From positions 1,185,520 to 1,249,519 of the forward strand of contig MU004193.1 in the NCBI GenBank assembly GCA_010093605.1: 64,000 bases of DNA, in the 5' to 3' direction. Source of the DNA: Lophium mytilinum (taxonomy: Eukaryota). This document shows positions 24,784 to 27,063 of the stretch, one piece after another; positions within the stretch are counted from its first letter, which is position 1; each line of letters opens with the position of its first letter. The notes below the pieces were generated by a model that saw nothing but the letters and a program-made list of their open reading frames with translations, did not search any database and was not told the DNA's origin. The translations under genes were made by a program, and so were the position numbers.

Positions 24784-25755
24784 TTACCCATGGCTCTTCT
24801 CAAACGGCCCCGCAAGCAACTTAAACCGCCCCTTCTCCAACGCCCGCTCCCCCGCCCACCCGCTCAACGCCTCCCAATCCACACACACCGTCTCCGCATC
24901 ACTCCTCAGCACCTTATTCCGCGCCTCACGCGAATCCCCAACCCACTCGAAGCTGTACAACCCGACATCCGCGTGACACATCACCGAGCGGCGGAGGGTT
25001 TCGATGCAATGATCTACGCAGCCTTTGTCAGCACCCTCCACACCACGCGATATTCGCTAAAGCGGCTATGCCAGGGGTTCTACCGTAATGCTCGACCACA
25101 AAAATATCGGCGGTGTGTGAGATGTTGGTGAGGTGATGGCGGTAGTAGTCCATATGCACTGCCTTTCGCAAGATGTCGAGGCAGTGGAGCTGGTGCCATA
25201 CGCCGAGAGAGCCCATGTAGTCGCCGTTTGGGAGCTGGACGCGGTTGGTGAGGTTTTCGCGCTGGGTGGCGAGTTCGGAGGGGGAGACGCGGATGTTCTG
25301 AACTGCGTTCGGAAGATTAGATCTTGTCGTCAGAAACAGGGTGGCATGTGCGTACATGAGAGTAGGTCATCCCATGCTGCGTCGGTTGCTGGTGAAGGCG
25401 GTTGGGCAAATGGGGAGTCGGCGTTGTCCCAGAGTGGGCGCTTCACATATTTGAGAGCCTTCGTTGCGGGCGCTGGGAAAGAGTTAGATGGGGAGCTAGG
25501 TTTGAGGGCTGGCTTCGTACAGTATGGAGGTTTTGGCAAATGCGTGGTCGGGTTATGCCGTACTTCAACGCTGAACTCCACCGTCATAAACACGGCTATG
25601 TAGGAGAGGAGGAGAAGTATGAGTGCGAAGATAGAAGCCTGAGCTATGACAACGCGAGCATTCTTTTGACTGTCATGCCGCGCGGACGAGATTTCGGCGG
25701 GCTGTGCAAGGTTTCGAAGAAGAGGCTCCGATGATTCTGCTCGTGAGTCTTCCAT
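24784..25755 (-). CDS. UstYa-family (DUF3328) oxidase, 3 exons (25755-25356, 25302-25084, 25013-24784)
   Basis: N-terminal TM anchor; PSPATDAAWDDLL; twin HxxHC motifs LGVWHQLHCLDILRK and EHYDHCIETLRRSVMCHAD (second motif formed across an intron); CVDWEAL. Confidence 0.92.
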
Positions 25756-26659
25756 CTCAGTTGTAATAGCCACTGAATCAGGGTTTACAGGCACCTTAGA
25801 GACGTCATCGCGTGTTAGTCTTGGTACTCTGAGTTGAACGTTGGGAAGTTTGGAAGAGTCTGTCCTCGACGTCCGATGAAGTCTACACTATAGCACCTAT
25901 TGGAGAGCTGGTGCTGCAATAAACTAGAATAATGATCATATGCATTTCTGTCGCTCGTTCGGGGATAACCACAAATCCGGCTGCCGCCCCTTATCCCCAG
26001 CGTTTGTGTCCTAGAAAGTATTGAGAAGATCATAAACACGGACCAGAGAAATCACGCTTACCAGACCCACTATAGCATGTTTCTGCGCTGCTATATGCTG
26101 GGACAAACTTTGATCGTGGCAAAAATCGATCAATATCATCTGATCCTAATAGAATGGTCGTTACCCGTGTTAAGCAGAACGGACACAACGCTACACCGTC
26201 CAATGGGGCTGGCGATAGTGCTACTCTAACCACGGAACAGGATGCAATCGATGAAAGCCGCTTTGTCGTTGATATTCCATCCACAGGGCCCACGGGTTGC
26301 GTCCTTTACAAACATAGAGGACGTTATATGATGGTAGTTTGCACTGCAACCTCACCTTACCCTCTGAGTCTACGTAATGAGCGGAACTTCATTCGAATCT
26401 CCCGTTCCAGCCAGCTGACAAATCGGAACAGTGTGATGAGTGAAAATGTCGGTTCGTTGTAAAACGCTAGCGATCACGATATCGAGATCTTTGTCGGCGT
26501 CGGGGAACTTTGTACGCACCGGCCGGTTTGGGAAAGTTTGAGCTCGCAGTAATTCACCTTAAATACCGTCCTCAGCCATCTGGCTATAGTCTTCAAACCA
26601 CTGGAAGTCAAAACTCCTCGTCGCAAATCCAAGTCGAAAGAAAGAAAGTCCACCTCGGC

Positions 26660-27063
26660 ATGCTCACCAAGACTTTTATCGTCGCTCTTTTGAGCTATAT
26701 CGTTATCGCTGTTCCGGTTTCTTTCGCTGGTAATTCTTCCTTAACCAAACTGGAATCAAAGCATGACAAGTCGCAGAAGAAAGATCTCAATGTGCCCGCA
26801 ATGAAGGTCAAGTCTTGACCAAGCCATTTGAGACGTATTCAGAATTCGCAGCCACCGGAAAAAGGGATGAAGTTGAAAGTGGTGGACAATGGAAGCGCGA
26901 GCACCTCGAGGGAGACCATATCGAGGCCCTGCCATTCCACGTAGATACGAGTCTCTCACAGCATAACAAAGTTGAGGGCGGTGGGCAGTGGAAGAGGCAA
27001 GAAGAGGTCGAAGGCGGAGGCGATTGGAAACGAGACGAGTTCGAGGAAGGCGGACAGCAATAA
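26660..27063 (+). CDS. Secreted Kex2-processed repeat protein (putative RiPP precursor), 118 aa, exons 26660-26729 and 26777-27063
   Basis: A 47-nt GTAATT...GCAG intron joins a signal peptide (MLTKTFIVALLSYIVIAVP) in frame to ...GKR DEVESGGQW KR EHLEGD...NKVEGGGQW KR QEEVEGGGDW KR DEFEEGGQQ*. Confidence 0.85.

Follow-up and report, generated by a model that had tools for sequence, protein, structure and literature searches.

The gene pair

The window analyzed here is a 64-kb stretch (64,000 nucleotides) of contig MU004193.1 from Lophium mytilinum, a wood-dwelling dothideomycete, and the system in question is a pair of divergent genes at positions 24784-27063. One of them codes for an oxidase of the UstYa/DUF3328 family, and the other for a small protein with a predicted signal peptide followed by acidic repeats that end in Trp and a Lys-Arg (KR) pair. 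Together, they probably form a small locus for a peptide that is made by ribosomes and modified after translation (RiPP), and the repeat protein is called the precursor below. The pair is composed of the following elements (coordinates are those of the window):

24784..25755, minus strand: UstYa/DUF3328 oxidase gene, 266 aa (P0003, GenBank KAF2492905.1), from PF11807 matches and the exon model
25756..26659, no strand: divergent intergenic region, 904 bp from ATG to ATG
26660..27063, plus strand: precursor gene, 118 aa (P0001, GenBank KAF2492906.1), exons 26660-26729 and 26777-27063

An initial annotation, made from the sequence alone, had placed a DUF3328 gene with the motifs HQLHC and HYDHC on the minus strand from 25755 and, about 900 bp away, a spliced 118-aa protein on the plus strand from 26660. 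Both genes were confirmed, the first by PF11807 matches and an exon model equal to P0003, and the second by a translation equal to P0001, at a distance of 904 bp. By contrast, the concern that automated annotation could miss the precursor was unfounded, because both genes are deposited with exactly those models: GenBank has KAF2492906.1 next to KAF2492905.1, as consecutive hypothetical proteins with models identical to the splice reading. The intergenic region between them is presumably a shared promoter.

The oxidase

The oxidase gene reads from an ATG at 25753-25755 to a stop codon at 24784-24786 on the minus strand, through the exons 25755-25521, 25472-25356, 25302-25084 and 25013-24784, and its translation equals P0003 letter for letter. 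When three exon pieces were scanned, the PF11807 (UstYa) profile matched them with E values of 1.7e-7, 1.2e-12 and 4.5e-16. These matches jointly span profile positions 13-220 of 220 and each exceeds the 25-bit cut-off, which places the protein in the family; the database record of P0003 is also annotated with PF11807. The features of the gene are the following:

25181..25195, minus strand: first HxxHC motif, HQLHC, residues 154-158 (position in the translation)
25006..25090, minus strand: second HxxHC motif, HYDHC, at residues 189-193 and interrupted by a 70-nt intron (splice present in a contig of sequencing run X1)
25579..25635, minus strand: predicted single membrane anchor, residues 41-59 (top 19-aa Kyte-Doolittle window, 2.55)
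25473..25520, minus strand: intron 1, 48 nt, in frame (annotated, and required by the model to give P0003)
25303..25355, minus strand: intron 2, 53 nt, GT..AG (joint 25302>25356 in the X1 contig)
25014..25083, minus strand: intron 3, 70 nt, GT..AG (joint 25013>25084 in the X1 contig)

The HYDHC motif exists only once the 70-nt intron has been spliced out. Both motifs are found at 154-158 and 189-193 in P0003 and in its orthologue from Mytilinidion resinicola, P0004, alike, and the residues H154, H157, C158, H189, H192 and C193 are invariant in 13/13 aligned oxidase relatives. At the N-terminus, 40 polar residues stand ahead of the predicted anchor, and an AlphaFold2 model has a helix at 28-65, with low confidence (mean predicted local distance difference test, pLDDT, of 57.5). 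This predicted layout of a polar tail, one helix and a C-terminal domain matches the topology of CctR as described (PMC12435403; here and below, papers cited by PMC number are cited for the parts of their text that were available).

The DUF3328/UstY proteins are the enzymes that define the dikaritin class among RiPPs, and the two HxxHC motifs are taken as their signature (PMC12048977). CctR is a membrane-anchored, disulfide-linked homodimer in which each monomer binds two coppers through HxxHC(x)nHxxHC, and it requires O2 and an electron donor (PMC12435403). The macrocyclase AprY and the halogenase ApnU are stated to behave like CctR, and the reactions ascribed to the family comprise hydroxylation, halogenation and macrocyclization (PMC12435403; PMC12186524). 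A like plane of four His around two coppers is found in the BURP domains of plants (PMC12435403).

The precursor and its repeats

The spliced translation of the precursor gene is identical to P0001, from the ATG at 26660 to the stop at 27061-27063; if the intron is kept in, the frame stops at 26816-26818. Its features are the following:

26730..26776, plus strand: intron, 47 nt, GT..AG (gene models; same junction in the Mytilinidion model)
26660..26728, plus strand: predicted signal peptide, residues 1-23, ending VSFA (from hydrophobicity)
26866..26898, plus strand: repeat 1, core of residues 54-62, plus KR (from the translation)
26971..26997, plus strand: repeat 2, core of residues 89-95, plus KR, with a 24-aa spacer ahead
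26998..27033, plus strand: repeat 3, residues 98-107, plus KR; Gln first, Trp last, KR on both sides, the best conserved
27034..27060, plus strand: degenerate unit at the C-terminus, residues 110-118, lacking both Trp and KR

At the N-terminus, Lys4 is followed by a 19-aa hydrophobic window of 2.3 (residues 5-23), a stretch that is conserved in the Mytilinidion orthologue, P0002. Beyond this predicted signal there is a 28-aa conserved region and then KR sites at residues 52, 63, 96 and 108. The repeat architecture consists of three V-x-x-x-G-x-W-KR units plus one degenerate unit (3.5 repeats), and every Trp of the mature precursor stands directly before KR (3/3). The residues that follow the four KR sites are D, E, Q and D, and the mature protein has Glu at 17 and Gly at 13 of its 95 residues. 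The KR-delimited repeats described in the initial annotation are, therefore, present as quoted, but only two of the units are bounded by KR on both sides. [quoted passage not shown]

The units are alike as peptides rather than as DNA. In every pairwise comparison, 8/11 residues are identical, and the seven identical residues other than Trp in each pair of units use different codons in 4, 6 and 6 cases. As the codons differ in this way and Tandem Repeats Finder detected no DNA tandem repeat at the precursor, the repeat is maintained at the peptide level. Moreover, when the window was scanned for at least three near-identical 5-mers before KR, the precursor open reading frame (ORF), with 3 copies, was the sole match in 64 kb, and reversed-sequence controls of 478 kb gave 0 matches.

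The model of the precursor in the ESM Atlas is unfolded (predicted template modeling score 0.09, pLDDT 0.40) and its single Cys is not conserved in the Mytilinidion orthologue, from which we conclude that it is no folded effector rich in cysteine. The feature neighbors of the precursor in the same atlas were discarded, with values of at most 0.84 in all cases, below the meaningful level. No Pfam family matched exon 2 at E<=0.1, including MF_alpha and MF_alpha_N.

Relatives and conservation

When 5.8 billion protein clusters were searched with a word index, 13 candidates for the precursor emerged, 2 of them at E<=0.01. One was P0001 itself, and the other was P0002, a protein of 157 aa from Mytilinidion resinicola with a BLASTP identity of 60%. 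An HMMER profile of these two proteins, compared with 1.84 billion representatives, matched 4 proteins at E<=0.001; the additional matches, P0016 and P0017, were rejected as large unrelated repeat proteins with no W-KR. Consequently, only two genera of a single family, Lophium and Mytilinidion, are known to have this precursor family. Both members align with 63% identity, and conservation between the species is concentrated in the signal peptide, in residues 24-42 and in the repeats. Both species together have six repeat copies, in which Val(-6), Gly(-2), Trp, Lys and Arg never vary and Tyr is absent (0/6); unit 3 differs by a single residue between Lophium and Mytilinidion. The sole Tyr of the mature protein is located in its N-terminal region and is not conserved.

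As a separate observation, residues 1-43 of P0002 form an N-terminal extension without a counterpart in Lophium, and in the alignment the start and signal peptide of the Lophium protein coincide with an internal Met. Since this Met matches the Lophium start, the deposited start of P0002 is probably too far upstream.

For the oxidase, 13 proteins were found at E<=1e-10 among 677 candidates. The orthologue of Mytilinidion resinicola, P0004, is 78% identical, and further relatives are found in Massarina (47%), Zopfia (45%), and Lophiotrema and Xylariales (38-40%). In Mytilinidion, the two genes have consecutive accession numbers, in both GenBank and RefSeq, on one scaffold of 590,201 bp. A homologous precursor linked to a DUF3328 gene, as the initial annotation would lead us to expect, does thus exist, and it is the sole homologue found. 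The narrow distribution common to both genes suggests that they belong together.

The pattern of conservation also bears on a very unlikely alternative, in which the 118-aa product is an intact, small, acidic and disordered secreted protein (wall-associated, metal-binding or an effector) whose KR pairs stay uncut. Its Glu/Gly-rich composition and predicted lack of folding, the presence of KR on both sides of only two units and the conservation of residues 24-42, which is as high as that of the repeats, would agree with such a protein. Against it, Trp precedes KR in 6/6 copies from both species, the constraint is centered on V..G.WKR instead of being evenly spread, and the residues after the KR sites (D, E, Q and D) include acidic ones that reportedly resemble Kex2 sites of the alpha-factor type.

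Another possibility is a divergent precursor of an alpha-type sex pheromone. The general layout (a secreted protein with KR-flanked, Trp-ended repeats) fits, and one neighbor in the ESM Atlas is an MF_alpha cluster, but its value of 0.83 is below the meaningful level. We regard this possibility as extremely unlikely, considering that the precursor has no Pfam match at E<=0.1 and no homologues other than P0001 and P0002, and that its cores are strongly acidic and do not have the Cys and Trp pattern that is said to characterize the alpha-pheromones of Pezizomycotina. In addition, pheromone precursors almost never adjoin a DUF3328 gene, with 0/227 of the yeast type and 3/216 of the fungal type having such a neighbor (PMC7329392).

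Transcripts

One public run, X1, whose RNA nature is guessed from its label, was compared with positions 24400-27500. A 624-nt contig from this run has the joints 25013>25084 and 25302>25356, with CT..AC ends that correspond to GT..AG on the minus strand. X1 holds, therefore, spliced UstYa mRNA, and two of the three annotated introns are confirmed. The same contig, which is the only one covering intron 1, reads through 25473-25520 (the piece 25356-25560 has no joint). Because the oxidase relatives keep the spliced Y-SPA junction at this point, we take the read-through as intron retention; alternatively, it could correspond to an isoform longer by 16 residues.

Coverage of the precursor is of a different kind. 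Exon 2 is covered by a contig of 168 nt, and the unannotated intergenic stretch has a contig of 167 nt at 26162-26328 with a depth of 2.6, within an ORF of 128 codons at 26076-26462 (plus strand) for which Pfam offers nothing credible (Secapin, E 0.049). Possible sources of this intergenic contig are background, a transcript from upstream and a non-coding RNA. Since it is as deep as the contig over exon 2, the latter may be background as well and is not counted as expression. Two UstYa introns are spliced in X1, but the precursor intron at 26730-26776, for which the initial annotation had proposed a transcript check, is not bridged by any read or contig.

Recurrence of the pairing elsewhere

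The published base rate favors a real link between the two genes. In the survey of Umemura (2020), 22% of 7,878 Kex2-processed repeat proteins have a DUF3328 gene within 15 genes, and DUF3328 counts are highest at the position adjacent to the repeat-precursor genes (PMC7329392). From the totals of this survey (9,399 DUF3328 genes, 14,491,621 proteins; PMC7329392), we calculate that a random gene would have a DUF3328 immediate neighbor by chance in ~0.13% of cases, and it is the difference between this value and the observed peak next to repeat precursors that supports the link.

The pairing was also examined in metagenome contigs, which were scanned with the oxidase alignment. It matched 296 stretches, of which 210 code for relatives, and the 80 best of these were retained as loci; their oxidases are 24-45% identical to that of Lophium, and 44/80 loci have at least 4 kb while 36/80 are shorter. 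A scan restricted to repeats that end in KR flagged 8/80 loci, two of which are identical, and two later versions of it gave 7 and 8 matches in the real loci compared to 0 in reversed sequences. Scans for any dibasic site and for general self-repeats were dropped, as reversed sequences gave as many matches as real ones (17-18 vs 12-15 and 28 vs 28, respectively). Locus L001 and a near-identical trio, L034-36, were added after reading by eye the repeats in the noisier scans. In the resulting nine distinct precursors, the gene is always located upstream of the oxidase match (9/9) and, in 7/9, on the opposite strand, as it is here. These loci support the oxidase-precursor pair as a recurrent two-gene module, as judged from gene order and repeats.

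Trp is present in the unit of 6/9 of these precursors, Tyr in 6/9, and Trp without Tyr in 2/9; the Trp is mostly located 2-3 residues ahead of the dibasic site. The Trp-bearing precursors are the following:

L008, 4259-4705, minus strand: Trp-unit precursor, no Tyr (metagenome scan)
L017, 4597-5298, minus strand: Trp-unit precursor (metagenome scan)
L053, 1195-1575, minus strand: Trp-unit precursor, no Tyr (metagenome scan)
L059, 2927-3289, plus strand: Trp-unit precursor (metagenome scan)
L073, 1-453, minus strand: Trp-unit precursor (metagenome scan)
L034, 1945-2430, minus strand: Trp-unit precursor (metagenome scan, by eye)

These six loci look like further uncharacterized Trp-core RiPP loci. 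Separately, a Trp-rich unit with a Lys-rich dibasic end was seen at least 2 times at L014 (3694-3882), L015 (2555-2743) and L016 (1673-1861), all on the minus strand and upstream of UstYa relatives 37% identical to the query; these units come from the noisy relaxed scan only and are unconfirmed.

Thus, Trp-bearing cores, even those devoid of Tyr, are common among mined loci. In the published survey, Tyr occurs in 65.6% of the repeats when the precursor is linked to DUF3328 and in 38.2% of the other repeats, and Trp in 20.5% and 24.5%, respectively (PMC7329392). The initial annotation had considered that the Lophium core differs from those known. This holds when it is compared with the few chemically characterized products, but not beyond them, because Trp-bearing, Tyr-free repeats are not unusual among mined loci, as the 20.5% of mined repeats and the 6/9 metagenome precursors with Trp illustrate.

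The same data weigh on an alternative that is unlikely, albeit not negligible: the 118-aa protein could be an ordinary Kex2-processed repeat protein that gives unmodified linear peptides, with the UstYa enzyme serving another substrate and the conserved adjacency resulting from the closeness of the two species. In the survey, 78% of the 7,878 repeat proteins have no nearby DUF3328 gene and many of them are thought to yield linear peptides, and the Trp content is the same with and without DUF3328 (20.5% vs 24.5%; PMC7329392); UstYa enzymes also take part in non-ribosomal pathways (PMC12435403). On the other hand, a DUF3328 gene would be an immediate neighbor by chance in only ~0.13% of cases, the upstream arrangement recurs in the metagenome contigs at 9 distinct loci, divergently in 7, both genes are equally narrow in distribution, and the window ORFs scanned yielded neither a non-ribosomal peptide synthetase (NRPS) nor any other gene for a candidate substrate. 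These scans against Pfam covered 79 of the 101 window ORFs of at least 100 aa (75 in a general scan and 4 near the pair); the 26 ORFs outside the general scan comprise 12 alternative frames over the gene for DNA polymerase eta and 14 in 20643-27073, including the 4 scanned separately.

A proposed minimal UstYa-dependent module

Considering the evidence as a whole, we propose, with a probability of roughly 60%, that these two genes make up a minimal RiPP module that depends on UstYa and is of the dikaritin (ustiloxin/asperipin) type. The interpretation given in the initial annotation is partly supported: the divergent pair is real, it is kept in a second species, and its cores are under constraint at the amino-acid level. 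What we infer from this arrangement is secretion, processing by Kex2, that the precursor is the substrate of the oxidase, and the whole of the chemistry.

In this model, the 118-aa precursor would enter the secretory pathway at the endoplasmic reticulum through its signal peptide. The neighboring UstYa protein would be a type-II membrane-anchored enzyme whose lumenal domain carries the binuclear-copper site HxxHC(x)nHxxHC and which would oxidize each repeat core, with O2 and electrons, in the secretory pathway. Most likely, an unactivated C-H of the invariant Val(-6), or of a Gly, would be joined to the C-terminal Trp, which is also invariant (-2 Da), and hydroxylation (+16 Da) would be the alternative. 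A Trp-Val or Trp-Gly link and hydroxylation are the first candidates because Val(-6), Gly(-2) and Trp are invariant and the family is known to attack unactivated C(sp3)-H bonds. Kex2 would then cut behind each KR and a carboxypeptidase would trim Lys-Arg to leave a C-terminal Trp, so that small acidic peptides of ~7-10 residues, up to three per precursor, would be secreted. A prediction of the complex between the lumenal domain of the oxidase and the precursor gave a score of 0.00, without controls, and counts neither for nor against this model.

Several points weigh against the proposed module. It is without known product, mass or modification, and three repeats are few compared to known precursors. 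Only 2/4 units (residues 54-62 and 98-107) have KR on both sides, the 24-aa spacer ahead of unit 2 lacks KR, and the first Lophium KR is replaced by RKQ in Mytilinidion. At the transcript level, X1 covers the precursor with a single 168-nt contig (26784-26951, depth 2.7) that falls short of the intron; this intron rests on two independent gene models with the same junction, and no contig bridges it. With respect to the genomic context, the window ORFs scanned include no tyrosinase, methyltransferase, peptidase, transporter or regulator, and 71/80 metagenome loci showed no precursor, many of them being too short to tell. Since general synteny is expected between Lophium and Mytilinidion, adjacency kept in two genera of one family is weak evidence. 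Finally, Tyr, which ustiloxins, asperipin-2a and phomopsins use (PMC7329392), is missing from the cores, and peptides of non-ribosomal origin, such as cyclochlorotine, are also modified by UstYa enzymes (PMC12435403).

Whether the product can be called a dikaritin depends on the definition used. According to the enzyme-based definition (PMC12048977), it is one, as a DUF3328 gene lies 904 bp from a multi-core precursor and the pair is kept in a second species. According to the chemical definition, which requires a Tyr ether (PMC11253845), the predicted product could not be a classical dikaritin, because there is no Tyr in the six repeat copies.

Comparison with known systems

The closest architecture is that of asperipin-2a (Aspergillus flavus, AprA/AprY), with one DUF3328 enzyme and no tyrosinase (PMC7329392). 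As in Lophium, a signal-peptide precursor with KR repeats is used, and AprY is copper- and O2-dependent (PMC12435403, PMC12186524). By contrast, asperipin-2a has Tyr- and Phe-rich cores with cross-links formed by Tyr-O ethers, whereas those of Lophium are Tyr-free, Gly- and acid-rich, and Trp-ended. AprA reportedly has about eleven repeats, compared to three in the Lophium precursor. Besides, no reductase or transporter gene stands beside the Lophium pair, and the oxidase is likened to AprY by description only.

The ustiloxin and phomopsin systems (UstA/UstYa/UstYb and PhomA/PhomY) also combine a DUF3328 enzyme, in which HxxHC occurs twice, with a multi-core precursor processed by Kex2 (PMC12048977, PMC7329392), but they belong to large clusters with a tyrosinase, a methyltransferase and several DUF3328 paralogues, and their chemistry consists of Tyr-Ile ethers. 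The mined loci that pair a precursor with DUF3328 (PMC7329392 and the nine metagenome loci) follow the same two-part logic, while the precursor family of Lophium has two members only. The 2020 survey alone contains 1,758 mined precursor-oxidase loci. Neither the core strings of the precursor nor the genera Lophium, Mytilinidion, Zopfia, Lophiotrema and Massarina appear in the text of the three supplementary files of PMC7329392, among which are its strain and KEP tables. In the literature searched on UstYa, dikaritins and DUF3328, we found nothing on the Lophium locus or on a characterized Trp-ended core. A study of asperigimycins (Nie 2025) names a benzofuranoindoline in its title and may already cover chemistry at Trp in a pathway of the related kind.

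A further comparison can be made with the lyciumins of plants, which are octapeptides with an N-terminal pyroglutamate derived from Gln and with the indole N of Trp linked to the C-alpha of Gly-4 (PMC11253845). Unit 3 of Lophium resembles them in having Gln first, Trp last and Gly at W-4, a likeness of core layout only. Lyciumins differ in being formed by a BURP-domain cyclase and in belonging to the plant kingdom, and no BURP domain was found in the Pfam scans of the window. It is a long shot, but UstYa might join the Trp indole to a Gly C-alpha, as in lyciumins, or to the C-beta of Val(-6), as in molecules of the cercic- or stephanotic-acid type, and the Gln-first unit might, in this way, become a pyroglutamyl macrocycle closed by Trp, a fungal counterpart of the BURP lyciumins. 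If this were true, the known parallel between DUF3328 and BURP copper cyclases would be extended from Tyr ethers to C-N or C-C bonds of Trp; a Trp-linked macrocycle would be a new bond type in DUF3328 chemistry.

At present, the locus stands as one more lineage-restricted precursor-oxidase locus of the mined kind, a lead rather than a surprise. Its interest lies partly in its size, as a system of one enzyme and one 118-aa precursor is very small and easy to rebuild in a laboratory host, and three slightly different cores on one precursor would show how tolerant the enzyme is.

Genomic surroundings

The gene directly downstream of the oxidase, and convergent with it (22869-24410, plus strand), codes for a membrane protein with a cytochrome domain of the cellobiose-dehydrogenase type (E 2.3e-5 and 4.9e-9 in two exon pieces), and its membrane segments have sub-threshold matches to cytochrome b561 (E 0.021) and DUF2427 (E 0.006). 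In run X1, its depth is 83.5, compared to 5.5 over the oxidase. As DUF3328 enzymes need an electron donor, a neighboring transmembrane heme electron shuttle is worth a look; nothing in these data ties it to the oxidase.

Other Pfam matches in the window correspond to a catalase, a PHD-finger protein, a MOSC-domain protein, a protein similar to glutathione S-transferases and DNA polymerase eta, and, on the far side, to a glucanase of glycoside hydrolase family 17 and a DAO-type oxidoreductase. Some 850 bp past the precursor stop, an AT-rich block of ~30 kb begins (27.9-58.4 kb, GC 0.31). Its dinucleotide ratios, with TpA/ApT of 1.78 and (CpA+TpG)/(ApC+GpT) of 0.25, are typical of repeat-induced point mutation (RIP), and it has only two ORFs of at least 100 aa, both without a Pfam match. 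The unit is, therefore, a bare gene pair bordering a degraded repeat region. A smaller AT-rich stretch at 17500-20300 (GC 0.40, TpA/ApT 1.47) also looks affected by RIP.

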